NCBI GenBank assembly: GCA_016717595.1
Contig: JADKFE010000010.1
Location: forward strand, 113,031 to 143,573
Reading direction: 5' to 3'
Origin: Deltaproteobacteria bacterium
GTDB taxonomy: Bacteria; Myxococcota_A; UBA796; CAJQPC01
Length of the DNA: 30,543 nt
The notes under the pieces were generated by a model. It did not search any database. It was not told the DNA's origin and was given only the letters and a program-made list of their open reading frames with translations. The position numbers and the translations under genes are program-made. Positions 1,473-30,309 of the stretch are shown piece by piece (position 1 is the first letter of the stretch; each line of letters begins with the position of its first letter).

Positions 1473-1491
1473 AGGCTTGAATCCTTCAGGT

Positions 1492-5513: not shown

Positions 5514-5529
5514 GAGGGTGCTCCTTTGT

Positions 5530-5556
5530 GTTGAGTGATTGGTTGAGACGGTTGAG
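5530..5556 (-). repeat. Three direct CTCAAC repeats (GTTGAG on the + strand at 5530-5535, 5542-5547, 5551-5556) in the 54-nt gspF-gspG spacer, just upstream of the gspG SD
   Basis: Direct reading of 5521-5567: ...tgTTGAGtgattgGTTGAGacgGTTGAGggggag.... This is the only real intergenic gap in an otherwise overlapped operon. Confidence 0.5.
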
Positions 5557-5567
5557 GGGGAGTCCGC

Positions 5568-6806: not shown

Positions 6807-6809
6807 AGC

Positions 6810-11062: not shown

Positions 11063-12057
11063 CGGACCTCATACTCGAAGGTCTGCCGCTTGTTTCGCCG
11101 GGAGACCTCGAAGGTGAAGTTGGACTCGCTCTGAAGGCTCTGAAAGGCGGAGAGCGCCTGGTCGGGGCTGGTGAGACCCATCCCGTTGACCTGGTGCACG
11201 ATGTCGCCGTTCTTGATGCCCAGCTTGTCGAAGATGCTGCCACGACGGATCGCGCTTAAGCGATACCCGTCGACCTCACCGTCCGCTCCGCGATGCGGGA
11301 CGACCCGCACCTTAGAGGCCAAGGAGTCGATGTTCGCCATCGCGTCCTCAAGCAGCTTTCGCTCGACGATGAACTTGTTGTCGCCCTCTTTGGTGATGCC
11401 GCCGTCGGACTCACCCGCGGGCTCGGGCTCGGAGGCGGGCCGGGGTTTGGCCTCACCCTTCGCGCCCATCTCGATGTACTCAAGCTCCCCGGTGCCACGA
11501 TCGATCCAGACCTTCTTGGCCTCGATGCGTACGATCTTGCCCTCACCGCCCTCTAAGGTGTCGCCGACGCCATACCCTTGGCTGCGGCTCTCGCGGTCGT
11601 CTTTGGCGATGAGCGCTGAGGAGAACAGCTCGGGCTCGGCCACCATGGTGGCGATGAGCACATACCGAAGCTCGCTCGCGCCGACCTCGCCGCCGGCCAC
11701 GCCGTCCGCCGTGGCGCCGACCTTGGTGGAGTCAAAGATGGACCGCCGCACGAAGGGATCGACGAGGTCACTCTTGCTGAGCCGACGGGCGCTGGCGACG
11801 GGGTTGTCTTCAGGGGGCGGCGGCGCGTCGTCGGGGCCAGGCTCGGCGTTCTCAGGAGCGCCGCCCTCGGCCATCGGCTCGTCCCCGGCGACGACGGGGC
11901 TCGCGTCGATGGGCTCAGCGCCTTCAGGCAACGTGAACACCACACGCTTGAGCGTCTGGTTGAGGGTGGCCGCCGACAAGAACGACGTCAGCGCGATCAT
12001 GGCCGCGCCCGCTTGGACGCGCCGAGTCTGGAGCAGAGCTTTGAGGGCCACGATCAC
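11059..12057 (-). CDS. gspC: T2SS GspC: TM helix, Pro-rich linker, HR domain and PDZ domain
   Basis: N-terminal TM (AAMIALTSFLSAATL). An HR-domain-like segment (LRYVLIATMV...YGVGDTLEGGEGKIVRIEAKKVWIDRGTGELEYIEM). A C-terminal PDZ (GYRLSAIRRGSIFDKLGIKNGDIVHQVNGMGLTSPDQAL). GTG start with an AGGAGA SD. Confidence 0.75.
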   Translation of the reverse strand: MIVALKALLQTRRVQAGAAMIALTSFLSAATLNQTLKRVVFTLPEGAEPIDASPVVAGDEPMAEGGAPENAEPGPDDAPPPPEDNPVASARRLSKSDLVDPFVRRSIFDSTKVGATADGVAGGEVGASELRYVLIATMVAEPELFSSALIAKDDRESRSQGYGVGDTLEGGEGKIVRIEAKKVWIDRGTGELEYIEMGAKGEAKPRPASEPEPAGESDGGITKEGDNKFIVERKLLEDAMANIDSLASKVRVVPHRGADGEVDGYRLSAIRRGSIFDKLGIKNGDIVHQVNGMGLTSPDQALSAFQSLQSESNFTFEVSRRNKRQTFEYEVR

Positions 12058-12082
12058 GAAGACTCTCCTGACCTTTGCCGAT

Positions 12083-12097
12083 GCAAGATCCGGGCCA
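12083..12097 (-). promoter_or_regulatory. Candidate sigma54 (-24/-12) promoter for the gsp operon
   Basis: The minus strand reads TGGCCCGGATCTTGCA against the consensus TGGCACG-N4-TTGCW. GG and GC have the correct spacing and there is one mismatch. It sits ~26 nt upstream of the gspC GTG, and the predicted TSS falls just upstream of the SD. Confidence 0.4.
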
Positions 12098-12179
12098 GCT
12101 TTGGAGGTGCTCAGGCTGCCGTCGGGGCCTCGGGTTCGCGACAGCGTGTCATCAGCGACCGGGGGAGGGCCCAGGGCCG

Positions 12180-12192
12180 TGACAAGTTGTCA
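12180..12192. promoter_or_regulatory. Perfect palindrome TGACAAGTTGTCA, ~95 nt upstream of the sigma54-like element. A candidate enhancer-binding-protein or transcription-factor site.
   Basis: Read directly: gtGACAAGTTGTCAtcg. It lies in the 272-bp divergent gspC/nudix intergenic region. Confidence 0.4.
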
Positions 12193-12328
12193 TCGCGTGC
12201 TCGACCGCGCCGACTTGAGCCCGTTAACCGCTCCGGCGGGCCGCCGCCCGGTCTCAGAGGGCCGCTCCCCGAGAGTTTCCGAGCCCAAGCCTTCTAGCCC
12301 CGCCGCCGAGGCGGTTATCTTGCGCGGC

Positions 12329-12817
12329 ATGTCTCGCAGCCCGATCCCCACCTGGACCTTCGCCCTCGTCGCTGTGCGGCGAGAAGATCAATTCCTGCTT
12401 GTACAAGAAGACAAGAAGGAGAAGCCTTGGTATCTGCCCGCCGGACGGGTGGAGGCCGGGGAGAGCCTCGTGGACGGCGCCGTTCGCGAGACGATGGAGG
12501 AGGCCGGGGTGCCCGTGGCCATCGACGGCGTGGTGCGCATCGAGCACACCCCGGCGTCGAAAGACAACTCCCGTCTTCGGGTGTTCTTCACCGGCCACGC
12601 CATTGATGACCGGCCCCCCAAGTCGGTGCCGCGCAAAGACACCCTGCGGGCGGCGTGGTTCACCCTCGATCAGATCCGGCAGCTCAAGCTGCGCAACACC
12701 GAGGCCTTGGAGATCTGCGAGTACCTCGCCGCGGGCGGGCCGGTGTACCCCATCGCGCTCCTCGCGCCCAAAGGCTCCGCGCCCTTCGCGGCGACTGCGG
12801 CGGATCAGCGGGGCTGA
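12329..12817 (+). CDS. Nudix hydrolase
   Basis: Nudix box GRVEAGESLVDGAVRETMEEAGV (GX5EX7REUXEEXGU). 163 aa from the ATG at 12329. The upstream part of track ORF 11171..12817 is antisense to gspC. Confidence 0.85.
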   Translation: MSRSPIPTWTFALVAVRREDQFLLVQEDKKEKPWYLPAGRVEAGESLVDGAVRETMEEAGVPVAIDGVVRIEHTPASKDNSRLRVFFTGHAIDDRPPKSVPRKDTLRAAWFTLDQIRQLKLRNTEALEICEYLAAGGPVYPIALLAPKGSAPFAATAADQRG

Positions 12818-13417
12818 GCCTCAGGCGCCTCTTCTAGGGGCACCTCTTCCGCTGGCGGCGGCTCCGCTGGCGGCGGCGTGCGTAGGGTCTCGATCAAGAA
12901 GAGCAGGCCCGGGTCGGGCAGCTCGACGTGCAGCGCCGTGAGGGCGAGGATCGCCTCATCCACACGATCCTCAGCGACGAGCGCCAAGGCCGCGTCGTGT
13001 TTGGCCTGGGCGGCGAGCAGGCCCACGGCGAGGCGCTGGCCGTCGGGGCCGTCTACGACGCTGAGGCGCTGGGGGCGGTCGATGTGGGGCAGATCCGCCA
13101 CCTCGTCGATGACGAAGCTCGCCGGGTTCACCTCGGGCTCGCTGCGCACGACCGTCACGGCGTTGCCTTCGATCGCCTCGACGCGGCAGGCGCTCGACGC
13201 CCGGATCACCCCGTAGCCCTTGAGGCTCAAGGCCATCATCCCGGGGCTCATGGCGGTCTGCTGATCCCAGGCGAGGAGCTCCTCGGCGACGACCTTGTCC
13301 GCGAGGATCTGCCGGGCCGGAGCGTCGATGGAGAGCCCCGGGAGCGCCTCACATACCGAGACGGCGAGGGGGGCGAGGCCAGGGCCGCAGCCCACGAGCA
13401 GGGCCAACAGGAGCATA
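12805..13417 (-). CDS. Hypothetical lipoprotein
   Basis: Starts at [11 protein letters not shown] (lipobox LVGC), the internal ATG of track ORF 12805..13749. High GC3. The 3' end overlaps the nudix 3' end by 13 bp, convergently. Confidence 0.55.
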
Positions 13418-13475
13418 CACACCTCAGGTCGTCTGGCCGTACCCCATATCCGGGCGGCGGCGCGCCGGGGATGGA

Positions 13476-13492
13476 CTGTTGGCCTGTTCAGT
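13476..13492 (+). promoter_or_regulatory. LexA/SOS-box-like site upstream of uvrB
   Basis: CTGTTGGCCTGTTCAGT matches the Myxococcus-type LexA consensus CTRHAMRYBYGTTCAGS at 14 of 17 positions, including the GTTCAG core. It is 31 nt upstream of the uvrB ATG. Confidence 0.35.
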
Positions 13493-13522
13493 TGGCCCGG
13501 CGCGAGATACAACCGCGGCTCT

Positions 13523-15658
13523 ATGCAGATCACGCTCAACGCGCCCTTCGCCCCCGCCGGGGACCAGCCCAAGGCCATCGCGACGCTCACCGAGGGCCTC
13601 GCCCGGGGGGAGAAGCACCAGGTCCTCCTGGGCATCACCGGCTCGGGCAAGACGATGACCATCGCGCATGTCATCGCGAACAGCCAGCGCCCAACGCTCG
13701 TGCTGGCCCACAACAAGACCCTCGCCGCCCAGCTCTTCGGCGAGCTCAAGAACCTCTTCCCCCAGAACTGCGTCGAGTACTTCGTCTCGTACTTCGACTA
13801 CTACCAGCCCGAGGCCTACGTCCCGTCCTCCGACACCTACATCGAGAAGGACAGCCTCATCAACGAGCGCATCGACAAGCTGCGCCACGCCGCCACCCGG
13901 GCGCTCTTGGAGCGCCGCGACGTGATCATCGTCGCGTCCGTGAGCTGCATCTACGGCCTTGGATCTCCCGAGGCGTACAGCAACATGCTGCTGCGCTTAG
14001 AGAAAGGCCAGCGGGTGAGCCGCGAGGCCATCCTGCGGAAGCTCGTCGAGATTCAGTACACCCGCAACGACATGGACTTCCACCGGGGCACCTTCCGCGC
14101 CCGGGGCGACGTCATCGAGATCTTCCCCGCCCACGAACAAGACCACGCCCTGCGGGTGGAGCTCTGGGGCGACGAGGTCGAGGCGATCTCGGTCATCGAC
14201 CCTCTGCGCGGCGTTCGTTTGGAGGCGCTGGACCTCTGCTGCATCTACCCGGCCTCGCACTACGTCACCCCCAAGTCGCAGACCGATCGGGCCGTGGCGT
14301 CGATTCGGGCCGAGCTTGTCGAGCGCCTCGCGACGCTGAACGCCGAGAACAAGCTCGTCGAGGCCCAACGTCTTGAGCAGCGTGTTCAGTACGACCTGGA
14401 GATGATCGAAGAGCTCGGCTACTGCTCGGGCATCGAGAACTACTCTCGGCACCTCACCGCGTCTGCCGAGGGCGCCCCGCCGCCAAACCTGCTGTCGTAC
14501 TTCCCAAAGGACTGGCTGCTCGTCGTGGACGAGTCCCACGTCAGCTTGCCCCAGGTCCAGGGCATGTACGTCGGCGACCGCAACCGCAAAGAGACCCTCG
14601 TGCGGTACGGCTTCCGCCTGCCGAGCGCCATGGACAACCGCCCCCTACGTTTTGACGAGTTTGAGGAGCGGGTGAACCAGGTCATCTACGTGAGCGCTAC
14701 GCCGGGCCCGTATGAGCTGGAGAAGGCCGGGGATCAGCTCGTGGAGCAGGTGATCCGCCCCACGGGCCTGCTCGACCCCTTGGTGGAGGTGCGCCCGGCG
14801 GTCACCCAGGTAGACGACCTCCTCGCCGAGCTTCGCCTCGTGATCAGCCAAGGCTGGCGCGCGCTGGTCACCACGCTCACCAAACGCCTGGCGCAGGAGC
14901 TCACCGACTACTTCCGCGAGCTGGGCCTGCGGGTGCGCTACTTACACAGCGACGTAGACACCTTAGAGCGCATGGAGATCCTGCGGGATCTGCGCCTGGG
15001 CGAGTTCGACGTGCTCGTGGGCATCAACCTCTTGCGAGAGGGCCTCGATCTCCCCGAGGTCGCCCTGGTGGCCATCCTCGACGCCGACAAAGAGGGCTAC
15101 CTGCGCAGCGAGCGCAGCCTCATCCAGACCATCGGCCGCGCCGCGCGAAACGTCGAGGGCCGCTGCATCCTCTACGCCGACCGGGTCACGGAGTCGATGC
15201 GGAAGGCGATGTACGAGACCGCCCGCCGCCGGACGATTCAAGAGGCGTACAACCTTGAGCACGGCATCACGCCCCGCACCATCGTGCGCGCCATCGAGAG
15301 CCACCTCGCCGACATGTTGGGCGGCACCACCGACACCGGCGCCGAGGCCAAGCTCGCCGCCGATGGCGCCTCCCGGGCCCCTGAAGACGCCAAGAGCCTG
15401 CCGCTCACGGCGATCCCCGAGACGCTCAAGCGCCTACGCGCCGAGATGAAGGCCGCCGCCGAGCGCCTCGACTTTGAGGAGGCCGCCCGCCTGCGCGACC
15501 GCTTGCGCGCCTTAGAGAGCTGGGCGATGGAGCTCTCGGGTGAGCTGCCCAGCGAAGAGCGCACCATCGGCGCCCGGGCCGCCGCCGCCTCCAAGGCCGA
15601 TCCTGGCCAAAAAGCCCCCCGCCGCACCTCCAAAGGCCGCCCTCCCCGGCATAAGTGA
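13523..15658 (+). CDS. uvrB: Excinuclease ABC subunit B
   Basis: [22 protein letters not shown]...GITGSGKT..., helicase motifs, and the C-terminal UvrB/UvrC interaction region. 711 aa from the ATG at 13523. Confidence 0.97.
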
Positions 15659-15667
15659 AGGTTCCCC

Positions 15668-15964
15668 ATGCTCCTCCTGATGTTTGTGATCGGCTGCGGC
15701 TACTCCGTCGAGGCCTGGTGGACCGATCTCGCTGAGGCCCACTGCCGCTGCGTGGCGCCTGAAGACTGGCGCGAGTGTCTGGACGAGCAGATGGTGATCT
15801 ACGAGTCCACGCCGGAGTGGGAGGCCTGCCACGATGAGGCCGCGCCCGTAGACCGCGAGGCCGTTCGGGAGTGGACAAAAGACTACTCAGACGCCTGCCG
15901 CACCCCGTCCGAGCCCGCGCCCGAGCCCGAGGACCCGAACTGGGTCGACGCCTGTGAGCTCTGA
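15668..15964 (+). CDS. Small acidic Cys-rich lipoprotein
   Basis: MLLLMFVIGCG lipobox and 7 Cys in 98 aa. Starts 10 nt after the uvrB stop. Confidence 0.5.
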   Translation: MLLLMFVIGCGYSVEAWWTDLAEAHCRCVAPEDWRECLDEQMVIYESTPEWEACHDEAAPVDREAVREWTKDYSDACRTPSEPAPEPEDPNWVDACEL

Positions 15965-16615
15965 GTGAGCCTACGCGTCTGGGTCTGCCTCGACCAACAC
16001 GACCTTGAGCACCTGGCCCTGGCCGCTGTGCGAGCGGCCATGCCCGCTGAGCGGCTGCACCCCGCCGCGCGCCTGCACCTCCAGATCTCCCCGCCAATCA
16101 CCCCCGGCGAGCTCTTCCGGCATGGCTCCGTCGAGCCCCCGCGCCTGCGCCTGATGGCCCTGCGCAACAGCGACCGCCGCGGCCGCCTGCTCGACCCGCT
16201 GGGCGAAGAGGCGCTCTCGTTGGCGCCGCAAGGCCCCGTCGCCCGGGGCGGTCTGCCGTGGGTCGAAGAGCTCGGCTGCCCCGCGCTCTCCAAGGCCCTC
16301 GGCGCCTGCCTGCTTTTGTGCTGGGAGGAGTCGCCGAGCCTCGCCTACGCCGCGCTCTACCGCCAAGGCCGCTGCCAGTGGTCTCTGGCCCTGCGCCCGT
16401 TCAAGGACGTCGTGCGGTTTGACGGCGGCCGCGCCTGGCGCGACAAGGGCCGCCTCGTCGCCGATGGTGACCGCGCCGAGATCATCCGCCTGGGCTTTGA
16501 GAAGCTCTTGACGGAGCCCCTGCCGATCGATCCCGACGAGGCCCTCGTCTTGCCCGACGTGCTCGCCGAGGCGCTCATGGGAGCGCCCGACGTGCCCCTG
16601 AAGTTGAAGACTTAG
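15965..16615 (+). CDS. Hypothetical protein, 216 aa
   Basis: The GTG follows the upstream TGA directly. Strong GC3 bias throughout. No recognisable domain. Confidence 0.5.
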   Translation: MSLRVWVCLDQHDLEHLALAAVRAAMPAERLHPAARLHLQISPPITPGELFRHGSVEPPRLRLMALRNSDRRGRLLDPLGEEALSLAPQGPVARGGLPWVEELGCPALSKALGACLLLCWEESPSLAYAALYRQGRCQWSLALRPFKDVVRFDGGRAWRDKGRLVADGDRAEIIRLGFEKLLTEPLPIDPDEALVLPDVLAEALMGAPDVPLKLKT

Positions 16616-16621
16616 CGGGTC

Positions 16622-20210
<3,589 letters not shown>

Positions 20211-20218
<8 letters not shown>

Positions 20219-21197
20219 AGACGTCGAGCCCGAGGCCCTTCACGCGGAGGAGGCGCTCGGCTCGGCGCGCGCGCCCCGAGCGCTGTTGGCCCCGGCGAAC
20301 GTCGATCAGAACCTCCGCGACGCCGCCCAGGTCTGGGCGGTGATGGTGGGCTGCTGGCTGGGCATCATCTTTGGTCCGGCCGCCCTCTATCCGCTCTGGG
20401 TGCTGATCTTGGGGGGTCGCCTGAACGCCTTGGGCGTGATCTTGCACGAGCTCTGCCACATGCCGCCCCAGCGCGGCGGGCGGGCCCTGCTCCTGGAGAT
20501 GTTGGCGGGCTGGCCGATCATGTCCACCGTCGACGCGATGCGCTACCACCACCTGCGCCACCACCGCGACTCAGGGATGCCCACCGACCCGTACCTCAAG
20601 CCGCCCTTGGCCGGCCGCCCGCTGCTGCGCCTGTTCTATTGGCAGCGCACGGGCCTGTTGATCTTCGTGTGGACCCTCCGGATGATCGTGGGCAACCTCG
20701 CCGCGGTGATCCCGGCCCTGCGGACCTTCTACGCGAGGGGGCTCCTTCAAGATCGCTCCGGCGCGCCCCTTCGGGACAGCCCCGAGGTGATCCGCTGCGC
20801 CCAGGCCGAGCGGCGCTTGATCCTGCCGCTCGTGCTGCTCGTGATCTTGGGGGGCCTGTCCCCCGGCGCGCTGGTCTATGGCGTGATCCTCCCCGCTTGG
20901 GTGGCGGGGCTTCTGTGCGGCTGGCGGCTTCTGGAGGAGCACAGCGACGCCCGCGCCACGGACCGCCGGGTCGAGACGACGCTGCGCACCACCCGGGATC
21001 ACAACCTCGACCCCTTGGGGCGGCTCTTCTTCGCGCCGCTCAACGTCGGTTACCACGTCGCGCACCACCTGCACCCCCAGGCCGCAAAAGAGCGGCTGCC
21101 CGAGCTCGCCGCCTGGACCCGCGCGCAGCATCCCGAGGCCTACCCGCGGCTTCGTCGCTGGTGGGGAGGCGACGAAGCGGCCCGCGACGGGGTATGA
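20211..21197 (+). CDS. Membrane fatty-acid desaturase family protein (three His boxes)
   Basis: HELCH, HHLRHH and HVAHHLHP with several TM segments. The likely GTG start at 20211 overlaps the upstream stop (GTGACTGA). The Pro-rich start of track ORF 20130 is shadow. Confidence 0.65.
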
Positions 21198-21225
21198 TGA
21201 GGCGTCCCCGCTGGAGCTAGGCCCC

Positions 21226-22296
21226 ATGCCCGTCTCGTTCACCCGCCGGAACCTGCTCACCTGGCTCGGCGCAGGCGCCCTGACCGCCGCGCTGCCGGGC
21301 CGCGCCTTCGCCAAGTCCGATGAGATCGAGCCCCTCGCCGCGCTGAAGCTCGCGACGATGAACCAGCGCGACGACGCCTGGGGCAAGGTGCTCAGCGTGT
21401 GGGCCCGCCACTTAGAGAAGGTCTCCAACGGCCAGCTCGACACGAGCGTGATTCACGACGGCGGCGATCGGGGCCTCGATGAAGAAGAGGTCACCCGGCG
21501 CCTGCTCGCTGGGGTGTGGGATGGCGGCGTGGTCACGGCCACGGGGCTCTACCAGGCCGCCCCCGCCGCCCAGGTGCTCCAGCTCCCCGGGCTGTTCGGC
21601 GCTTGGGCCGATGTAGAGGGCGCCTTGGGCCGCGCCCGCCCCGAGCTCGACCGCCAGCTCGCCGCCGCCGGGCTCACCGTGCTCGGCTGGGGCAACGTCG
21701 GCAGCCGCTACCTGTTCACCCGCGGCGTCGCCCTACGCTCTCCCGCCGACATGGGCGCCCAGCAGGTCTATCTGCCCAAGGGTGATCTCGCGCTCAAGGC
21801 GCTCTATGAGGTCGCCGGGGTGCCCGCCCCGCTCACCTTTGATGAGGCCGCCGTGCGCCACCGCCTCACCAAGGCCGAGCTCTCCGTGGTGCCCGCCACC
21901 TTGATGCAGGCCGAGTCCCGCGGCTGGCTCGGCGCGCCGCGCCTCGACCAGCTCGTCGCCGTGCGCCTGGGGGTGCAGGTCGCCGCCCTCGTCATGCGCA
22001 CCGACGCCCTGGACGCCTTGCCCAGCCACCTTCGTGAGCTGGTCTTAGAGACCGGCCCCCTCGCCGCGAGCGGCCTCACCACCCGCACTGAAGAGCTCGA
22101 GGCCGCCGCCTTGGCGCGTGTGCAGCAGCTCACCGCGCCGATCGAGCTCGCTGAAGGGTTTGTGACCCAGTGGGACGACGCCTTCAAGGCCGCCCGCGAG
22201 CGGCTCGTCTCCGGCGGCGCCATGCCCCAGGCGCTCCTGGACCTCATGGCCGCCCCCGCCGCGCCTTCGGGCTTCTCCGGCGCCCAAGGCGGCTGA
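21226..22296 (+). CDS. TRAP-type DctP-like periplasmic solute-binding protein with a Tat signal
   Basis: Twin-arginine signal FTRRNLLTWLGAGALTAALPGRAFA. The body matches the DctP pattern (...GLTVLGWGNVGSRYLFTRGVALRSPADMGAQQVYLPKGDLALKALYEVAGVPAPLTFDEA...). No dctQ or dctM nearby. Confidence 0.5.
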   Translation: MPVSFTRRNLLTWLGAGALTAALPGRAFAKSDEIEPLAALKLATMNQRDDAWGKVLSVWARHLEKVSNGQLDTSVIHDGGDRGLDEEEVTRRLLAGVWDGGVVTATGLYQAAPAAQVLQLPGLFGAWADVEGALGRARPELDRQLAAAGLTVLGWGNVGSRYLFTRGVALRSPADMGAQQVYLPKGDLALKALYEVAGVPAPLTFDEAAVRHRLTKAELSVVPATLMQAESRGWLGAPRLDQLVAVRLGVQVAALVMRTDALDALPSHLRELVLETGPLAASGLTTRTEELEAAALARVQQLTAPIELAEGFVTQWDDAFKAARERLVSGGAMPQALLDLMAAPAAPSGFSGAQGG

Positions 22297-22314
22297 GCTT
22301 CGGCGGTCAGCGCC

Positions 22315-22953
22315 TCAGGGTGTAGGTTTTGTGCGCGGCTCGCTGCGCTCAAACCAGAGGTCAAGGAGCGGCCCGAGCATCGGCAACAAGGCCCAGCGCC
22401 AGTTGCGGCCGAGCTCACGGTGAATGAGCATCGAGGTGAGCCAGAACGCCAGAAAGTCGAAGCCCATGATGAACATGAAGGCTTCAGTTCGGGTGGCGTG
22501 CCACCACACGCCGGGCTCGGTGGCGACGAGGCCCCAGGCGCCCAGGCAGAGCGTCGCCAAGGTGAGCACGCTGACGATGCGGCGCCCGGCGAGGAGCTTG
22601 AGCGGCCCCGTCACCGGCTGGCGTTGGTTAAACGCCGAGCGCAAGAAGAAGCCCGGCAAGAGCGCGAAGGCCCCGAGCACGTTGGCGAGGAGCACAAACG
22701 GCCACAGCGGCAGGGGCCGAGCGTTCAAGAGCGGCGCCGCGCGCGCCCCGATCACCCACGGCCAGATGCCCATGAGCATAAAATGCACGATGACGAGGGG
22801 GTCCTCTCCTTCCCAATCCCCGGTGAGCAGGCGAATCACCCACTCTGACTGATCCGGGCGCGCATCGGGCGAGCCGATGAACGACACGGCCATCAGGGCG
22901 ATCCACACGATCAGATAGCCCAGGCGGTGAACCGGCGGCTCAGGGCTCTCCAC
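22315..22953 (-). CDS. Hypothetical polytopic membrane protein
   Basis: 212 aa with several hydrophobic helices and a WPW motif. Overlaps the upstream gene by 14 nt. Confidence 0.5.
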   Translation of the reverse strand: MESPEPPVHRLGYLIVWIALMAVSFIGSPDARPDQSEWVIRLLTGDWEGEDPLVIVHFMLMGIWPWVIGARAAPLLNARPLPLWPFVLLANVLGAFALLPGFFLRSAFNQRQPVTGPLKLLAGRRIVSVLTLATLCLGAWGLVATEPGVWWHATRTEAFMFIMGFDFLAFWLTSMLIHRELGRNWRWALLPMLGPLLDLWFERSEPRTKPTP

Positions 22954-24019
22954 GGGGGGCCTCCTCGGCGGGGGAGCTGGACGGCGAGGCGGGGACGCCG
23001 CCTTTGATTCTCACCCAGGCCGCGAGGAACTTCTGGTGCAGCCAGTCACGGATGTGGTGGCGCCGACGCCACAAAACCACGGTGCCGATGCCCTTGATCG
23101 TCCACCAGGCGATCATCCACTTGCCGGCGTTCAGCAAGAAGTCCGCCGAGGGGATCCAGGCGAAGGGCAGCTCCGTGGCCTCCGCGGGCGCGGCGACGGG
23201 CTCCTCGGTGGCGATGACCAAGGCGTCGTCTCCACAGCGTAGAACGACCTCGACGGGCCCGGCGCGCCAGCTCTGGTCAGGCGCCCCCGGGAGGCTCGCG
23301 ACGAGCTCGACGCGGTGCGGGCCGGGGCTGAGGCTCACGGGCGCGTGGTGGTCAGGGGTGCAAGCGGCGTAGATCAGGTCTTGGCCGCGGCCAACCCAGC
23401 TCCCGCCAAACGGCGCGGGCTCTGGCAGCGAGGCCGACGGGCGCCAGAGCTGGCCGTCTACCCAGGTCTCGAACAGGAAGGCGTCGCGCCAGGGCTCGGC
23501 GGAGGGGTGAAGGGTGAGGCTCACCTTGGCCGAGGCGGCGTCGAGGGCCTCGGAGCAGGCGCCAGAGTCCGTGGCGACGACCACGGGGCCGCGCTCGTGG
23601 GGATCGACGGAGAGCGCGCCCAACGCGACGGGCGGCGGCGCGGGGGCGGTGAGGTTCAGGTGCAGCGCGCGGGGCCCCCGCTGATCCCCGGCGCCGCCCA
23701 AGATGACCCGGCTTCCTGGGCGCAGCGCGCCCTCTTGAGGCCTCACCAAGAGCACGCCGGGGTGGGTGGCGCTGGCCTCCTCGACGACGGGCACCGCCGC
23801 GCCGCCCTCGACGGTGAGCCCCCGCGGCTCATCAAAGGGCGCGCAGCCCGAGCGGAGGAGCGCGATGGCGCTGAGGTTGGCCGGGACCGAGGCGCCGTCC
23901 CCCGGCACCGAGGCCGCGGGGTGGCAAGGATGGGGGGAGCACGCCCAGGCGGCGGCGGGCGCCAGGCCAGAGAGGCCGACCACCGCAGCGGACAGGAGCA
24001 GGGCGCGCTGAAACACCAT
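22940..24019 (-). CDS. Secreted protein with a cleavable signal peptide and a C-terminal TM anchor
   Basis: The internal ATG at 24019 gives MVFQRALLLSAAVVGLSGLAPAAAWA|CSP.... The C-terminal TM is WMIAWWTIKGIGTVVLW followed by RRRHH. Strong GC3 bias. The N-terminal 70 aa of the track ORF is 5' UTR. Confidence 0.55.
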   Translation of the reverse strand: MVFQRALLLSAAVVGLSGLAPAAAWACSPHPCHPAASVPGDGASVPANLSAIALLRSGCAPFDEPRGLTVEGGAAVPVVEEASATHPGVLLVRPQEGALRPGSRVILGGAGDQRGPRALHLNLTAPAPPPVALGALSVDPHERGPVVVATDSGACSEALDAASAKVSLTLHPSAEPWRDAFLFETWVDGQLWRPSASLPEPAPFGGSWVGRGQDLIYAACTPDHHAPVSLSPGPHRVELVASLPGAPDQSWRAGPVEVVLRCGDDALVIATEEPVAAPAEATELPFAWIPSADFLLNAGKWMIAWWTIKGIGTVVLWRRRHHIRDWLHQKFLAAWVRIKGGVPASPSSSPAEEAPRGEP

Positions 24020-24091
24020 CACCTCGGCGCATGACGTGGACACCAGGACGTAGCGCGGCAAGCGGGGGGGTGCATCTTGGCGGATGGTTGA

Positions 24092-24107
24092 TTGGTTGAC
24101 CAACCAA
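24092..24107. promoter_or_regulatory. Perfect palindrome TTGGTTGACCAACCAA, preceded by a direct TGGTTGA repeat, 73-88 nt upstream of the 24019 gene
   Basis: Read directly: ggaTGGTTGAtTGGTTGACCAACCAAaca. Sits in the low-GC intergenic region. Confidence 0.45.
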
Positions 24108-24252
24108 ACACGCGATAGCCCTCCCTTCCGGAGTGGGGCCGGGTTGGCGCCTGCGGCGCCAGTGTTCAGCGCGGCGGTCGGCTCGACATCATGAGCCCGA
24201 CTTCGCAACCGCTCGCACCTTATAGGCATCGATATCTCCTAAAGCCGTAAAT

Positions 24253-24288
24253 CGCTGACTAATACCCTGAGTTCCAGTGGTATCAGCG
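24253..24288 (-). terminator. Imperfect hairpin: CGCTGA/TCAGCG and TACC/GGTA stems, 12-nt loop. The minus-strand RNA continues UUUACGGCUUU. A possible terminator for the upstream minus-strand operon.
   Basis: Self-complementarity read from the sequence. It lies ~330 nt downstream of the 24616 gene end, inside the low-GC spacer. Confidence 0.2.
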
Positions 24289-24615
24289 ACGCCTACGACA
24301 ACTCTTCCGCCTTTGCGGCGATCGACACTCCTCAACGCACGTCGGGAGACTCGCTTTGATGGCGCGCCCCCTCAAATCCAATCTCCACAGATGAGCGTCT
24401 GGGTATGCGCAGCACCATGTCCTGGCTCAGGCAAGGCCCCTGAACGTCACCCCTAAACACGAGGTGATTCTTACACCTCACCCGACAGTCGGTAGCCGAA
24501 GGTCAATCTTAGGAATGCGTCTTGTTTTGTGCCTTTGTAGCCAATAGGCTGAATTCGAGCGTTAGTCTTTGGGTCTGGCCCGATCTGCCCACAATCCTGT
24601 TGGTCATTGTTGTCG

Positions 24616-25071
24616 TCATCGCGAAAGCTTGGAGTCGTCGCGCTCACCGCTGCAGTCATTGACCACACCATCGCAGACCTCTCTCGCACCAGGAAAACGA
24701 CTACGATCCGCATCGTTGCAGTCCCCCTCCTTTGGGGCCGTTCTCTTCGGGCAGACGCTCCCCGCGTACCGCTCGGGGCGAGCGCCCTTCCTCCCAAAAC
24801 CATCCCCGTCGTCGTCGGGATAACAGTCAACCCCCGCCGCAATGGCGCCCTTGGGGGGCTCACCCTCCGCGACGGCGTCATTCGCCGCCCCTTCCCCAGC
24901 CGTTGGTGGCTTTGGCGCCGCTGGAGGCTTCGCGGCCTGCTCGCCGAGGGCTGGCGCCCCCGGGCCGCCCAACGTCTCGTCTTGGGGCGTCGACCGAGCC
25001 CACACGATCCACAACGCGAGCAGCGCGGTGACGAGCCCCACCAATCCGCCGATGATCAGCGGTCTCTTCAT
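24616..25071 (-). CDS. Small membrane-anchored protein with a Pro-rich linker and a MopE-like Cys-rich putative metal-binding motif
   Basis: N-terminal TM MKRPLIIGGLVGLVTALLALWIVWA. The motif is VDCYPDDDGDGFG...GDCNDADRSRFPGAREVCDGVVNDCSGERDD (DCDD...PGAxExCDGxDNDC repeat). Its ATG overlaps the upstream stop (ATGA). Confidence 0.6.
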   Translation of the reverse strand: MKRPLIIGGLVGLVTALLALWIVWARSTPQDETLGGPGAPALGEQAAKPPAAPKPPTAGEGAANDAVAEGEPPKGAIAAGVDCYPDDDGDGFGRKGARPERYAGSVCPKRTAPKEGDCNDADRSRFPGAREVCDGVVNDCSGERDDSKLSR

Positions 25072-25844
25072 CTCGTCGTTCGGAAGGGGCTTAGGGGGCC
25101 CTCACTGCGCTGGCGGCGCGCGCGGCTGCTCAAGGGCAAGGGAGACAGCGCGGGAGGCGGCGAGGGAGACGCTGCGGTCAGGCTCGCGAGCTGGGCGGCG
25201 GTGGGGACCGGGATGTTCAGTCGTGTCTCCGCCTCGCTCAAGGCGCTCGGCAGCGGAGCGGCCGCGGGGAGAGGCGCAGCGCTCGGGCGCGCCGCAACCG
25301 TCGAGGGCCGGGTCGGCGGCGAGATCACCGTCTTGTCGTCGTCCTCCTCGTCGTCCTCGTCGAGCTCTGGGTGAAGCGCGACGTGCTGGAGCTGGGCCGT
25401 GCGGAACCGGTCCGAAGGCGCCATGAGCCCCGCCGCAGGGGCGGGCTCGGCGGCGGGGGACGGGGGCGCTCGCCGGACTCGGCACGAAGCTCTTCCTCTT
25501 CTCCGGCGCGGCTCAAGCTCAAGCTCTTCCGTAGGCGGACGAAAGACGGCGTCGGGGAAGTCGCTGGTCGCCCTCGACAGGCTCGGCCAACCCCGGCCGA
25601 TGTCCAACCCGGCGGCGTCGATCTGCGAGCGGCCCTCTCTCAGGCAGCTCGGTCTGTTGCGCCTGCGGCGGGCGAGGCTCAGCCGCCATCCGCTCGCCCT
25701 CCAGACCGGCCCTTCTCGACGGTCAGAGCGGTCGAGGAGGCCTCTTCTGCCGCGCCAGTCTCCGCGGACCCTGCTCCTTGAGGGCTCTGCCTCCCTCTCG
25801 TCTGAGTCACGAAGCGCGGCCGCTCCTCCCCGGGATGCGAACAT
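25068..25844 (-). CDS. Hypothetical Arg/Pro/Ser-rich, low-complexity protein. Frame uncertain.
   Basis: It is the only ORF spanning the gap. Both ends overlap neighbouring start/stop codons in this frame (TGATG at the 5' end, ATGA at the 3' end). The composition looks like a disordered protein or an off-frame artefact. Confidence 0.3.
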   Translation of the reverse strand: MFASRGGAAALRDSDEREAEPSRSRVRGDWRGRRGLLDRSDRREGPVWRASGWRLSLARRRRNRPSCLREGRSQIDAAGLDIGRGWPSLSRATSDFPDAVFRPPTEELELEPRRRRGRASCRVRRAPPSPAAEPAPAAGLMAPSDRFRTAQLQHVALHPELDEDDEEDDDKTVISPPTRPSTVAARPSAAPLPAAAPLPSALSEAETRLNIPVPTAAQLASLTAASPSPPPALSPLPLSSRARRQRSEGPLSPFRTTR

Positions 25845-26512
25845 CAGGCCGGCGGGGCAGGGGGCTCCGGCTCCAACGGCGGGCGCCCCGAGGGCGGAGG
25901 ATCACCCTCAGCGGGCTCCTCGGCGATGCGCCCTGTAGACAGCGCCTCCCGCTCCTCTACAGTCGGCCTATCGAGCACCCCCGGCGCGCCCGCGCCCACC
26001 AGGAGGCTCTTCAGCGCGTCGAGCTGCGCGGCACGCTCCGGTCCAGGCGGCAGGCGGGACGACCAGAGCTCGCGGATCAGCGTGGCGGCGATGGGCTCGG
26101 GGGGCGTCGTCGTGGCGCCGATGAACATGCGGCGCGCGAGGGGATCGCCCTCCCAGTGCTCCAGCGGCGCCAGAAGCTCGTACAAGACCGGCAACAAGAG
26201 GCCGGGATCACCTCCGTACGCGGCGCGAAAGATCCCCCGCGCCGCCGCGCGGTCGAGGGTGCCCAAGGGGTAGATGAGGCTGTGCTGCCACACCGCCCGG
26301 CGCCCATCAAACTCCAAAAACTTGCGTCCGAACAGGGTGATCACGTCACCCACCCCCGCGAGCGACTCCTCATAGAGCGCCCACGGGTCGGGCTTGGTCT
26401 GCTGCAGACGAAGCCCCACCTGCTCCACGGGCCCGACGCCTCGCCCCCGAAGCTCGGTGACGAAACGATAGTCCTGCCTCCAGCGGAGATTTAGGAAGTG
26501 GGCGGGCTTCAC
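25844..26512 (-). CDS. Hypothetical protein, 222 aa, translationally coupled to the GTPase gene
   Basis: The GTG start overlaps the GTPase stop (GTGA). Good GC3. No recognisable motif. Confidence 0.5.
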   Translation of the reverse strand: MKPAHFLNLRWRQDYRFVTELRGRGVGPVEQVGLRLQQTKPDPWALYEESLAGVGDVITLFGRKFLEFDGRRAVWQHSLIYPLGTLDRAAARGIFRAAYGGDPGLLLPVLYELLAPLEHWEGDPLARRMFIGATTTPPEPIAATLIRELWSSRLPPGPERAAQLDALKSLLVGAGAPGVLDRPTVEEREALSTGRIAEEPAEGDPPPSGRPPLEPEPPAPPA

Positions 26513-27609
26513 CGGTCGGCGCTCCCGTATACCTCAGTGCTCCCCGTGAACAGATGATCAAGCTCTAGTCCCGCCACGATCGCGCCCAGGCACTCGTGAA
26601 CCCCGGCGCCTGAGCGCGCAGACCCGAACACATACCAGGAGTCTCGTCGGGGGTTGAAGCTCTTCTGCAGCAGGAGATCGACGTGCTGGCGTAGCTCCAA
26701 CATCGCCGGATCCGCCTCGGGGCCCTGCGCTGGCACGTTGGGGAGCTTGTCTACCTTGTTAAAGAACACCACGATCGAGGAGACGACCTCCCGGGCGACG
26801 TCTCGCTCGTAGGTGGCGCGCAGCCGCGCCTCGCTGACATAATCCGCGTTCTTGGCCACCCCCGCGCAGACATCCCAGATCATCAGCGCCACCGCGCGGC
26901 CTTTGTTCTCTTTGTGATGGCGATCGATCATGTTCCCGATCTGCTCGGGGGAGCCGCCCGCGATGTCCACAAAGTCAACGGCGTGCAGCACACGCAGGCC
27001 GTTCTCGTCTCCCCAGCACAGCGGCACCGGGCTCGTCCGATATTGCGCCATGGTGGACTGTATCGAATCTAAATCTTTCGGCGTCGCGGTGGGGTTGGTG
27101 AGGCGCTCCATCAGCGTCGTCTTCCCGCCCTTGGACATCCCGTCCATAAAGACGGTGTGGATACGAAGCGGCACGGCCTGCTTCGCGAGCTCCATGTTGA
27201 TGCGGTTGATGTGCGCGAGCTCTCGCTTGAGATCGGTGTTCTGCGCGTCGTAATCTCGATTGGCCGTGCGGTACTCGCTGAGCTGGCCCTCGACCTGGGC
27301 GGAGCGGGACTTGAGGTGGGTGAGCTGGGCCCGAAGATCGGTGACCAGCTTCTCTTGTTCAGCAAAGCTGGCCAACATCCCCTCGCGCTCCCGCTGATGT
27401 CCCTCCATGCGTGAGATCAGCTCGCGCCTCTGCTGAGTCGAGTCATCCACTTGCGCAAGAAGCTCAGCGGTGTGCTGCTGCGCCTCCTGGAGCTGGGCCA
27501 AGATGGCGTTATGCTCTTGTTCGTGATCCCGAAGCTGAAACCCCAACCAAACCACGACGACGACCAAGACAACAACCGAGACGAGCAGAGCGACGACGAG
27601 AACTTCCAT
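26509..27609 (-). CDS. Membrane-anchored coiled-coil Ras-like small GTPase
   Basis: N-terminal TM MEVLVVALLVSVVVLVVVVVWLGF. About 140 aa of heptad-like coiled coil. G1 GMSKGGKTT, G3 DIAGG, G4 NKVD, G5 SAR. ATG at 27609 with a GAAGGTG SD; the track begins at an upstream GTG, 27618. GC3 is visibly lower than in the flanking genes. Confidence 0.65.
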   Translation of the reverse strand: MEVLVVALLVSVVVLVVVVVWLGFQLRDHEQEHNAILAQLQEAQQHTAELLAQVDDSTQQRRELISRMEGHQREREGMLASFAEQEKLVTDLRAQLTHLKSRSAQVEGQLSEYRTANRDYDAQNTDLKRELAHINRINMELAKQAVPLRIHTVFMDGMSKGGKTTLMERLTNPTATPKDLDSIQSTMAQYRTSPVPLCWGDENGLRVLHAVDFVDIAGGSPEQIGNMIDRHHKENKGRAVALMIWDVCAGVAKNADYVSEARLRATYERDVAREVVSSIVVFFNKVDKLPNVPAQGPEADPAMLELRQHVDLLLQKSFNPRRDSWYVFGSARSGAGVHECLGAIVAGLELDHLFTGSTEVYGSADR

Positions 27610-27640
27610 CACTGACACCTTCGAGACCTAGTTTCAAGCG

Positions 27641-27739: not shown

Positions 27740-29272
27740 ATGCTCGCGCCTTCGCAGATCCGTCCCGGCCAAGTCTTTGGTAAGTACACCCTCGTCAAGC
27801 CCCTCGGCGAAGGAGCCTTCGGCGGCGTGTGGCTCGCAGAGCGCGTCACCAACCACCAGCAGCACCAGCTCAACCGCCCCGTCGCCTTGAAGCTGCGCCA
27901 TCGGCACGAGTCGCAGACGGACATGCACGACGCCAACCTGTCCTTTCTGCGCGATTGGTACGTCGGGAACCTCATCCAGCACCCCAACATCGTCGCGATT
28001 CAAGACGTGGTGACCGAGGGCCCCGACATCGCCATCGTCATGGAGTGGGTCGACGGGTACACCTTTGGCGACATCTTCCGCCGCCTGACGTCTCTGGACG
28101 CGTTCTTGCCGTTGTCCGCGGTGCTTGAGGCCGGGATCGGCGTCTGCGCGGGGCTGCACGCCTTACACTCCGTTCGGCGCCCCGACGGCACCCCCTACAA
28201 CATCGTGCATCGCGACATCAAGCCCCAAAACCTGATGATCGACCTTCACGGCGTGGTGCGGGTGCTTGACCTCGGCATCGCCAAGAGCGAGGAGCTCCCC
28301 GGAGAGCGCACCGCGCACGGCATCGCCAAAGGCACCATCGAGTACATGGCGCCTGAGCAATACCTGAGCGACAACCTCTCTCCCGCCACCGACCTCTTCC
28401 CCTTGGGGGTGGTGCTGTTTGAGCTGGCGACAAAAGAGCGGCTCTTTCGGCCTGAAGCGGACGACTCCCGGCTCTTTCGGCGCAAGCGCAGCGGCCACGC
28501 GGCGAGCCGAGTCAACGCGCATGAGGCTCGCCTCGGCCCCTTCGCGCCTGTGCTGCTGGACTGCCTGGCCATCGAGCCTGAGGATCGCCCGCAGAGCGCT
28601 GAGGAGCTCGGTCATACGCTGCAGGGGCTCTTGGACGGCGCGCCCCGCGGGCCGGGGCTGCACGACCTGATGTCGGCGTTTCGAGGGGAGATCCCGCCCC
28701 GAATGGCCCAGAGCCCGGAGTGGGCGCCGTTGGCGCTGGCCCTCGATCGCCCCCGCCGCCCAACCCCCGTGGTTCATCTGCCGCGAAAAAACATCGCGCT
28801 GCTGCTGCCTGGCCTCGACATGCCAGAGACGATCGTCGAGGCGCTCTCGCCCATTGATGAAGACGGTGATGTTGCCATTGAGCATAGCGTCGTTGTTCCC
28901 GCGACGCTCCCAACCCCAGAGGCGAACCTCACGCCCCTCCCCCTCCCCGACCCGCCCACACGCTCGCTGCCGTTCTCGCCGACGCCCAGCCCGATCCCGC
29001 TCTCGGGCCAGACCACGAGGATCAGGACGACGACGCCGTCTCCGACCCCACCACCGACGCCGACCCCACCCCGCCCAGAGCGCGCCCGGTCACGCCGACG
29101 CCACCGCCCACGCCGGTCGTGGCGCCGCCAGCCCCCCCGCCGCTCATCCGATCCGCGTTTGTGCCGCCCAAGGCGCCGACGCCGCCCAGCCCTCCGCCCC
29201 GCGCCCCGATCGCGGCGCCGCCGCTGGCGCCCGCGTTCATGTCAACCAGAACGCCCTCCCCCGCGCTCGTGA
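27740..29272 (+). CDS. Hanks-type Ser/Thr protein kinase. The N-terminal kinase domain runs to about residue 300. The C-terminal ~170 aa in this frame are Pro-rich, then Arg-rich, and are probably off-frame.
   Basis: Gly-loop LGEGAFGGV, VALKL, HRDIKPQN, DLG and APE motifs. After ~29060 the frame turns Arg-rich (RSRRRHRPRRSWRRQ...), whereas frame 1 reads as a natural Pro/Ala linker. Confidence 0.8.
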   Translation: MLAPSQIRPGQVFGKYTLVKPLGEGAFGGVWLAERVTNHQQHQLNRPVALKLRHRHESQTDMHDANLSFLRDWYVGNLIQHPNIVAIQDVVTEGPDIAIVMEWVDGYTFGDIFRRLTSLDAFLPLSAVLEAGIGVCAGLHALHSVRRPDGTPYNIVHRDIKPQNLMIDLHGVVRVLDLGIAKSEELPGERTAHGIAKGTIEYMAPEQYLSDNLSPATDLFPLGVVLFELATKERLFRPEADDSRLFRRKRSGHAASRVNAHEARLGPFAPVLLDCLAIEPEDRPQSAEELGHTLQGLLDGAPRGPGLHDLMSAFRGEIPPRMAQSPEWAPLALALDRPRRPTPVVHLPRKNIALLLPGLDMPETIVEALSPIDEDGDVAIEHSVVVPATLPTPEANLTPLPLPDPPTRSLPFSPTPSPIPLSGQTTRIRTTTPSPTPPPTPTPPRPERARSRRRHRPRRSWRRQPPRRSSDPRLCRPRRRRRPALRPAPRSRRRRWRPRSCQPERPPPRS

Positions 29273-29988
29273 GCGCCCCCAGCGGCGCCGGTGAGCGGCC
29301 TTCACCCGCCGTCGAGGACGAAGACGACGGGCGTCCTACGGTCTTGATCGTCGTGGCCGCGATGATGGCGGGGGTCATGCTGGCGGCGGGAATGTTGGTG
29401 GTGAGCCAGATCATGTTCAAAGACCCCAAGCCCATCCCCGAGGAGGTCCTGGTCAACAAGCCCGCCGAGGACCTGCCGCCCGAGGACGTGCCGGCCGAGG
29501 TCGCCCCTCCCCCCGAGGCCGACCCGTGTGATGGCGTCAGCGACGAGGACGGCGACGGCTATCTCCCTTGTGCCCCCGAGACCGATGCGGCGCTGGCCCG
29601 CGTCAGCCTAGGCGAGCTCAAGGCGAACGACTGCGACGACAAAGATCCCAAGGTGTACCCCGCCGCCAAAGGGGACGGGCGCGGCGTCGACAACAGCTGC
29701 GACGGGAAGATCGAAGGGAAGGAGCGGCCCGTGACCGAACCCCCGCCGCCGCAGGAGACCTGTTTTCAAGACCTGGACGGAGACGGCTACGGAAACGTGC
29801 TGAAGCCCCTGCGCGGGGAGGCCTGCCGTGGAAAAAACGTGAGCAAAAACAGCGAGGACTGCCTCGACACCAACGCCCGCTGGTACCCAGGCGCGGCGGA
29901 GCCGCCCGGATCGCCTGACATGAACTGCGACGGGAAACCGACGCCCGCGGTCGAGAATCCAAGCTCCCTGTCGCGCCGCAGGTGCTGA
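29119..29988 (+). CDS. Pro/Ala-rich linker, TM helix and an extracytoplasmic MopE-like Cys-rich domain (three motif copies). Either a separate gene or the frameshifted C-terminal half of the kinase.
   Basis: Frame 1 is open from 28888 and has good GC3. TM TVLIVVAAMMAGVMLAAGMLVVSQIMF. Motifs ANDCDDKDPKVYPAAKGDGRGVDNSCDGK, CFQDLDGDGYG and EDCLDTNARWYPGAAEPPGSPDMNCDGK. In-frame candidate starts at GTG 29119 or ATG 29239. Confidence 0.55.
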   Translation: MAPPAPPPLIRSAFVPPKAPTPPSPPPRAPIAAPPLAPAFMSTRTPSPALVSAPSGAGERPSPAVEDEDDGRPTVLIVVAAMMAGVMLAAGMLVVSQIMFKDPKPIPEEVLVNKPAEDLPPEDVPAEVAPPPEADPCDGVSDEDGDGYLPCAPETDAALARVSLGELKANDCDDKDPKVYPAAKGDGRGVDNSCDGKIEGKERPVTEPPPPQETCFQDLDGDGYGNVLKPLRGEACRGKNVSKNSEDCLDTNARWYPGAAEPPGSPDMNCDGKPTPAVENPSSLSRRRC

Positions 29989-30254
29989 GGGCCACGGGCT
30001 CGCTCAGAGGCAAGAAGCTCACCGTGAACGCTGCGCTCGACCCAAACGGCGTCCGGTGCAAGGCGCTCTATGTTCATGTCAGCGGCTCTCCCAGCTTCAT
30101 CACCGGCGAGACCACCATCCAACAGATGAGCGGCGGCCCCACCGATTGGCAGGCGAGCGTGCCCGTAGACCAGAAAGAGTTGTACTTTAAGCTCATATGC
30201 AACGACAATGGCCCTTTGCGCATCGGCGCCAAGTACTACGGGGTCTCGCAATGA
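29982..30254 (+). CDS. Beta-rich domain ORF in frame 0. A possible further C-terminal extension of the receptor, or a small separate gene.
   Basis: Frame 0 is open from 29919 and reads ...KKLTVNAALDPNGVRCKALYVHVSGSPSFITGETTIQQMSGGPTDWQASVPVDQKELYFKLICNDNGPLRIGAKYYGVSQ. It overlaps the end of the MopE-like ORF by 7 nt. Confidence 0.4.
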   Translation: MLRATGSLRGKKLTVNAALDPNGVRCKALYVHVSGSPSFITGETTIQQMSGGPTDWQASVPVDQKELYFKLICNDNGPLRIGAKYYGVSQ

Positions 30255-30309
30255 GCGGCGATGTCTGTTATGCTGCGGCCATGAACCTTGCCGCGGATAG
30301 GGTTGCCCT

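Follow-up and report, generated by a model that had tools for sequence, protein, structure and literature searches.

Hanks-type (eukaryote-like) receptor Ser/Thr kinases in bacteria include PknB/Stk1, and the myxobacteria hold a large kinase complement. Also common in the Myxococcota is Pfam family PF11617, a "putative metal-binding motif" named after MopE. Here we describe a locus in which the two are combined, at positions 27740-30254 of a 30,543-nucleotide (nt) stretch of contig JADKFE010000010.1 from a Deltaproteobacteria bacterium (assembly GCA_016717595.1), an uncultured myxobacterium of wastewater. The whole stretch is called the window. The gene underlying the locus is an ordinary bacterial receptor Ser/Thr kinase, intact copies of which are already annotated at the National Center for Biotechnology Information (NCBI), and nothing suggests a new mechanism. 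As written in the window, the gene is spread over three reading frames. Sequence comparison makes it almost certain that the three open reading frames (ORFs) are one gene, and the two lesions that separate them are probably errors of the assembly.

Reading frames, domains and orthologues

The ORF listing gives three ORFs on the + strand, which overlap one another:

27740-29272, + strand, frame-2 ORF, 510 amino acids (aa)
29119-29988, + strand, frame-1 ORF, 289 aa
29982-30254, + strand, frame-0 ORF, 90 aa

According to the stop positions, the open stretch of frame 1 begins at 28888 and that of frame 0 at 29919, as had been noted. The window has a G+C content of 66-72%, at which third-position G+C is a strong frame indicator. 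Third-position G+C favored frame 2 to about 29000-29060, then frame 1 to ~29955, and then frame 0 until the stop at 30254. The ORFs, this coding signal, Pfam and homology all agreed with the initial annotation, made from the letters of the window alone, in splitting one gene over frames 2, 1 and 0. The gene as read in the window consists of the following parts:

27740-29080, + strand, frame-2 segment: start codon, kinase domain (~27785-28615), juxtamembrane region and first part of a Pro/Thr-rich linker
29081-29272, + strand, off-frame Arg-rich tail of the frame-2 ORF (from the translation; third-position G+C favors frame 1 here)
29083-29955, + strand, frame-1 segment: rest of the Pro-rich linker, transmembrane helix (29341-29403), MopE-like module 1 (29521-29705) and module 2 (29761-29934)
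29958-30254, + strand, frame-0 segment: short linker, C-terminal seven-strand beta-sandwich (FN3/Ig-like) and stop codon (30252-30254)

The Arg-rich signature that had been noticed in downstream frame 2 was seen after ~29072. It is typical of off-frame Pro/Ala codons, and a real protein of this kind is not expected in the intact gene.

The kinase was found in frame 2, as had been proposed: Pkinase (PF00069) matched residues 16-292 at 115.8 bits against a Pfam cut-off of 31.7, and the orthologue P0001 scored 119.7 bits. The kinase motifs were all present, with GEGAFG at 23, VALK at 48, HRDIKPQN at 157, DLG (a DFG variant) at 177 and APE at 204. A Pro-rich linker of ~190 aa lies between the kinase and the transmembrane helix. 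The only strongly hydrophobic stretch is VLIVVAAMMAGVMLAAGMLVV, at residues 531-561 of the reconstruction obtained by joining the three frames, with a Kyte-Doolittle 19-residue maximum of 2.57. The MopE-like part was likewise confirmed in frame 1, where the PF11617 motif scored 35.1 bits against a Pfam cut-off of 27 in two stretches. The ectodomain contains two modules, each composed of DxDGDG and DC.D...NCDG, and not the three MopE-like modules that had been counted initially.

The frame-0 piece, which comprises the last 90 residues, had no match in Pfam. AlphaFold2 predicted a seven-strand beta-sandwich for it with confidence (predicted local distance difference test score of 89.9; predicted template modeling score of 0.80), in line with the further beta-rich domain that had been suspected in this frame. 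The Foldseek matches of the predicted structure were FN3 domains and a CBM56 module at template modeling scores of 0.6-0.66 and 8-20% identity, a generic fold match only. The Pfam scan of the gene's products and the orthologue revealed no PASTA domain. The NCBIfam model PknB_PASTA_kin (NF033483) reached 134.7 bits against a cut-off of 450 and was matched through the kinase part alone, and no NCBIfam equivalog model was reached. The gene is a receptor-like Hanks-type Ser/Thr kinase with a cytoplasmic kinase, a Pro-rich linker, one transmembrane helix, two MopE-like Cys-rich modules and an FN3/Ig-like beta-sandwich. By analogy with other bacterial receptor kinases, binding of a ligand or surface outside the cell by the ectodomain would regulate the kinase on the cytoplasmic side of the membrane.

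In the homology searches, the three frames were joined into a query of 837 aa (838 aa if lesion 1, described below, is read as a 6-nt gain plus a lost G). At least nine related assemblies encode the whole protein of 842-882 aa, or its break-spanning part, in a single frame. The following were among them:

P0001, 842 aa, annotated "protein kinase" at NCBI, from the metagenome-assembled genome (MAG) JADJYZ; kinase part 98% identical
P0002, 882 aa, covering 100% of the query
P0004, 846 aa, single-frame orthologue
P0005, 854 aa, single-frame orthologue
P0121, 842 aa, from MAG JADJIW, in the same 90% cluster as P0001
L002, a more distant Myxococcota MAG, residues 1-842 in one frame

L002 was the one true relative that the genome scan yielded; the window's own genome and the two genomes closest to it did not come up in that scan. 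The matches listed from a metagenome scan with protein alignment A3, which used generic patterns such as EYMAPEQ, were all unrelated kinases of no more than 36% identity.

The reconstruction aligned end to end with the single-frame proteins in alignment A3, and the domain order was identical. The expectation that small indel repairs would restore one receptor of ~838 aa is thereby borne out. The kinase, transmembrane helix and ectodomain form one polypeptide in every orthologue, and it is this polypeptide that is interrupted in the window as written. The orthologue neighborhoods also matched, with a coiled-coil/GTPase-like gene upstream on the opposite strand and a 576-aa gene downstream. Using the ectodomain alone, we found the partial proteins P0146, P0147 and P0148, which belong to the window's allele class and are 80-85% identical to it over the last 130 residues. 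All three read straight across the second junction as ...NCDGKPTPAVEEPKPPVPPRVL... (...PAVEESKPPV...). The contig of P0147 (L120) is continuous at the first junction too, and the window-like alleles L120, L121 and P0148 cross the junctions in one frame. No case of separately encoded parts, and no set of three orthologous proteins, was found among the at least nine related assemblies. Since the orthologues encode the same domain order in a single frame with the same neighbors, and since the window-like alleles cross both junctions in frame, the three ORFs can be taken as one gene with little doubt.

Position and nature of the two lesions

The frame changes were mapped by comparing positions 27740-30254 of the window with the contigs of relatives:

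29060-29082, + strand, lesion 1, frame 2 to frame 1: net gain of 5 nt relative to L001, L114, L120 and L121 (DNA alignments and protein alignment A3)
29954-29956, + strand, lesion 2, frame 1 to frame 0: one base missing; the window has GTCGAGAATCC and the window-like alleles have GTCGAGGAGCC or GTCGAAGAGTCC

At lesion 1, the four relatives are 5 nt shorter and read ...CCCGAGG(C/T)GCGCCCGGTC, where the window reads ...CCGACCCCACCCCGCCCAGAGCGCGCCCGGTC; the deposited window bases at 29078-29086 are GAGCGCGCC. The difference may be read as a 5-nt insertion of CCGAC (29060-29064) followed by three adjacent substitutions. On the other hand, it may be read as a 6-nt in-frame gain together with the loss of one G in GAG(G)CGCGCC at 29080/29081. 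The latter is preferred because fewer substitutions are needed, and lesion 1 is best read from the alignments as a putative 6-nt in-frame length variant plus a lost G in GAG[G]CG. In-frame length differences are common in this Pro/Thr repeat, being 12 nt and 9 nt in L120 and L121. Under the preferred reading, both lesions are the loss of a G in a GAGG context, though two cases are proof of nothing.

The first transition had been placed in the initial annotation at cccccccgcc near 29131. The C7 run at 29132-29138 was rejected as the lesion: L001 and L114, which are intact, have the identical run, and the agreement of frame 1 with the orthologues has set in before the run is reached. The accompanying proposal that two single-base deletions account for the frames is correct for lesion 2, where one base is missing. 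It does not hold for lesion 1, which is a net gain of 5 nt and not a plain homopolymer deletion.

Lesion 2 is a single lost base at 29955 (GTC GAG [G]AA), by which GAG GAA became GAGAA. The window reads GCGGTCGA-GAATCC here, compared with GCGGTCGAGGAGCC and GCGGTCGAAGAGTCC in L120 and L121. Over 29250-30260, the comparison with L120 and L121 revealed one frameshifting gap in all, and the other indels were in-frame indels of 3 nt.

In a separate observation, a C-terminal beta domain spread over three frames was seen at L116 2560-2831 (Logan SRR34217589, P0003), in an orthologue of 75% identity. The shifts in L116 run in the + direction near an A5G3 run, at positions unlike those of the window.

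Origin of the lesions

Two features of the gene bear on the age of the lesions. Over the 1.2 kb downstream of lesion 1, there are no stop codons and every family-conserved residue is kept. The ratio of window-private nonsynonymous to synonymous counts was 1.48, compared with 2.2 for L120 and 1.67 for L121, both of which are intact. Excess relaxation of selection was thus not detected in the downstream parts by these sequence counts. Because the downstream frames are free of stops, the conserved residues are kept and the nonsynonymous/synonymous ratio is no higher than in intact relatives, the lesions would be recent or artificial. Omega, the ratio of nonsynonymous to synonymous substitution rates, was 0.19, 0.43 and 0.69 along the gene. 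This gradient was accompanied by an eightfold rise in synonymous divergence (dS) and therefore reflects allele age, not decay.

The two closest genomes, JADJYZ and JADJIW, were 96.6% identical to the window over 17688-25077 and 93% identical over the remaining window. They are Lyne MAXAC.002 and Ejby BAT3C.362, respectively, two high-quality MAGs of Singleton et al. 2021 that are placed in Myxococcota class UBA796 and in the "OM27 clade" by 16S (PMC8012365). Both are CANU Nanopore assemblies that were polished by Racon, by medaka and then with Illumina reads, and their CheckM strain heterogeneity is 44-55% (PMC8012365). The authors of that study caution about platform errors and chimeric population bins (PMC8012365). 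The window record has locus tags (IPO67_) and a naming style as in JADJYZ and JADJIW, and we infer that its MAG came from the same project; its sample probably belongs to BioProject PRJNA629478.

Many 1-nt indels separate the sister MAGs L001 and L114, which are of the same species; the indels lie in short runs of G, C or A and break genes. One of them, private to L114 at position 8370, is a GG/G difference in the linker of a paralogous kinase-MopE gene (L114 7714-9796), which is thereby split into 481 and 238 aa; in L001 this gene encodes 693 aa. A patch of homopolymer indels at 5900-7630 of L114 fragments a 586-aa gene as well. L001, for its part, has lost one nt at 8609, and this private change divides a 783-aa gene into 56 and 727 aa; the site is intact in the window, in L114 and in the MEGAHIT contig L118. 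The MEGAHIT and SPAdes contigs of relatives (L117, L118, L115 and L002) carry these genes intact. Apparent frameshifts are known to arise from long-read errors and from the consensus of collapsed alleles (PMC12007338, PMC8445201).

We consider that the two lesions are probably residual consensus errors of a Nanopore-derived, Illumina-polished MAG, a technical origin being the likelier one on balance. The lesions fall precisely at sites where the alleles of coexisting strains are strongly diverged, so that short-read polishing would fail there and leave indels in the consensus. The uncorrupted alleles would then read GAGGCGCGCC and GTCGAGGAATCC at the two lesions.

The possibility that has to be taken most seriously beside an assembly error, although we hold it to be clearly less probable, is a real and very recent strain-specific pseudogene, with both indels present in the cells. 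The cells would then make a soluble kinase of 510 aa that ends in a nonsense Arg-rich tail and has lost its link to the ectodomain. Several observations weigh against a technical origin and on the side of such decay. The rest of the window, ~24 kb that includes type II secretion system genes, uvrB, enolase, a desaturase, DctP and others, is without broken genes, and there are zero indels relative to L001 over 17688-24100. Errors would therefore have to be confined to two adjacent hypervariable receptor loci, and damage confined to fast-evolving genes fits the real decay of dispensable genes equally as well as failed polishing. The neighboring 783-aa MopE gene is far worse damaged, with at least seven frame switches plus stops in 24100-25870. 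A net gain of 5 nt, as at lesion 1, is unlike the usual homopolymer error of a single base, and the Pro/Thr-coding sequence around it is rich in repeats, which makes replication slippage plausible there. On the other hand, a pseudogene is opposed by the absence of relaxed selection in the window copy relative to its intact relatives and by the lack of stops or other defects over the 1.2 kb downstream of lesion 1. It is also opposed by the sister long-read MAGs, each of which holds different private frameshifts in the same gene families, and by the intact genes in the short-read assemblies of relatives. A repeated process, in which the frameshifts are real and small indels, located in the linker and where the beta domain begins, cause strains to lose or uncouple their ectodomains again and again, is improbable.

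It was also considered that the sequence is correct and the pieces are functional as they stand. Three separately translated genes would be a soluble kinase, an anchored MopE protein from GTG 29119 and a small beta-domain protein from GTG 29982 or GTG 30024. These three GTG codons are present, GTG 29982 overlaps the frame-1 stop codon, and the last piece has a 76-aa product at NCBI (MBK9645022.1). However, frames 1 and 0 already show homology to the single-frame orthologues ahead of every codon at which the second and third ORFs could start; in frame 1 there is no start codon ahead of GTG 29119, while the orthologue homology begins at 29083 or earlier. The 76-aa product would be missing the first strand and some of the second strand of the predicted beta-sandwich, the beta domain itself lacks a signal peptide, and no relative encodes the parts separately. 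The standalone anchored MopE-like protein at 24616-25071, which had been offered as a precedent for such small proteins, is only a piece of a gene whose intact form in relatives has 783 aa, and it is unfit for that purpose. Separate genes were rejected on the upstream homology, the incomplete fold of the 76-aa product and the single-frame relatives, and are very improbable.

Programmed -1 ribosomal frameshifting or transcriptional slippage that joins the three frames is the least credible of the explanations. Both shifts are -1 in direction, and A_AAA_AAC heptamers occur at 28786-28792 and 29832-29838 in phase with the coding frame, where they encode the conserved RKN and GKN. However, the -1 frames entered from these heptamers are closed by stops at 28885 and 29916. 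By direct reading of the sequence, no X_XXY_YYZ slippery heptamer is in phase within 29060-29082 or 29935-29972, and folding downstream of the junctions was no better than that of shuffled sequence (z = +0.6 and +2.5), so that no stimulatory RNA structure was found there. The orthologues all have a continuous single frame at both sites, and there is no long homopolymer to support transcriptional slippage. Programmed frameshifting was rejected because of the missing slippery site at the junctions, the missing stimulatory structure and the unconserved shift.

Ectodomain variation, neighboring genes and known systems

In the comparison of the locus with L001, L114, L115, L120 and L121, divergence was unevenly distributed along the gene. 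Relative to L001, the kinase part was 98-100% identical in DNA with a dS of 0.05. The linker, transmembrane and MopE part had a dS of 0.18, and the C-terminal beta-sandwich was 58-70% identical with a dS of 0.43. At least two ectodomain allele classes were recognized, one with L001, L114 and L115 and the other with the window, L120, L121 and P0148. The steep rise in divergence along the gene is suggestive of recombination, or of diversifying selection that acts on the exposed part. A diversity-generating retroelement was set aside as the cause of the variable C terminus: the window has no template-like repeat of the ectodomain DNA, and indels are part of the variation, which extends over the entire ectodomain.

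The hypervariability of the ectodomain beside near-identical kinase domains is the sole biological point of some interest. If the frameshifts were real, two adjacent receptors in a UBA796 wastewater population would keep near-identical cytoplasmic modules with deeply diverged ectodomains (dS from 0.05 to 0.43). That would be a sign of surface-exposed sensors under diversifying selection, exerted for instance by phage or through kin or prey recognition, together with strain-specific inactivation. For the reading of long-read MAGs in general, the locus illustrates that clusters of frameshifts can coincide with strain-hypervariable surface genes.

The public annotation of the region contains the following entries:

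IPO67_07695, 222 aa, MBK9645019
IPO67_07700, 289 aa, MBK9645020
IPO67_07705, 54 aa, MBK9645021
IPO67_07720, 76 aa, MBK9645022.1, "hypothetical protein", 30024-30254 from the internal GTG 30024: truncated C-terminal beta-sandwich of the kinase gene

Between the 54-aa and the 76-aa proteins, IPO67_07710 and IPO67_07715 have no protein accession, and neither the 510-aa nor the 289-aa ORF product occurs in the protein collection. Most simply, the kinase and MopE pieces would have been flagged as pseudogenes by the annotation pipeline. It is best to treat the three ORFs, together with the NCBI 76-aa protein, as one receptor kinase gene that is frameshifted or misassembled.

The neighboring gene at 24100-26512 on the - strand is one 783-aa ORF in relatives (P0128 on L118) and 56 plus 727 aa in L001. 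Its layout is a conserved cytoplasmic N-domain, an acidic linker, a transmembrane helix, a MopE motif and a Cys-rich C-domain. In the window this gene is shattered: the N-domain is the ORF 25844-26512, the linker is in another frame, the transmembrane helix and MopE motif are the ORF 24616-25071, and the C-domain contains the frame switches and stops mentioned above. Over 24113-24701, the window and L001 differ by ~31 indel events and 128 mismatches. The PF11617 motif thus occurs in this neighboring gene, and it occurs in the paralogous kinase as well.

Between these two loci, the coiled-coil/GTPase-like gene at 26509-27618 on the - strand is annotated with 289 aa in the three NCBI MAGs, whereas several short-read assemblies have it at 366 aa. 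As the ORF in the window extends over 369 aa, the NCBI start is probably too far downstream. Positions 1-18235 of the window are ordinary and intact, with a type II secretion cluster (GspC, D, E, F, pseudopilins and K), uvrB and enolase. In L001, the locus goes on past the end of the window, at 10001-21650, as a duplicated cassette, in which a kinase-MopE receptor is followed by two genes of 530-590 aa without a family match, and the copies of the duplicated gene pair are ~90% identical in DNA. The duplicated cassette probably adds to the trouble of assembly.

In its lesions, the locus resembles the documented indel errors of long reads and collapsed alleles (PMC12007338, PMC8445201) in that small indels split a conserved ORF, the lesions coincide with strain-variable sequence and sister assemblies hold different private frameshifts. 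It differs from the textbook case of such errors in the net 5-nt gain of lesion 1, where a 1-nt homopolymer error would be typical. The likeness to programmed -1 frameshifting in dnaX and insertion sequence (IS) elements is limited to the direction of the two shifts; unlike those systems, the junctions of the window have no slippery heptamer, no stimulatory structure and no conserved shift.

In its encoded protein, the gene shares with PF11617 proteins two DC.D...P.A.E...NCDG motifs above the Pfam threshold, each preceded by a DxDGDG motif that resembles a calcium site. Otherwise it is unlike them, the short motif alone being in common, and metal binding by its product is putative. As in the Hanks-type receptor kinases PknB/Stk1, an N-terminal cytoplasmic kinase is followed in the reconstructed protein by a juxtamembrane linker, a single transmembrane helix and an extracellular sensor part. 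Unlike PknB/Stk1, the ectodomain encoded in the window is without PASTA domains and has two MopE-like modules and an FN3/Ig-like beta-sandwich instead, and the kinase has DLG in place of DFG.

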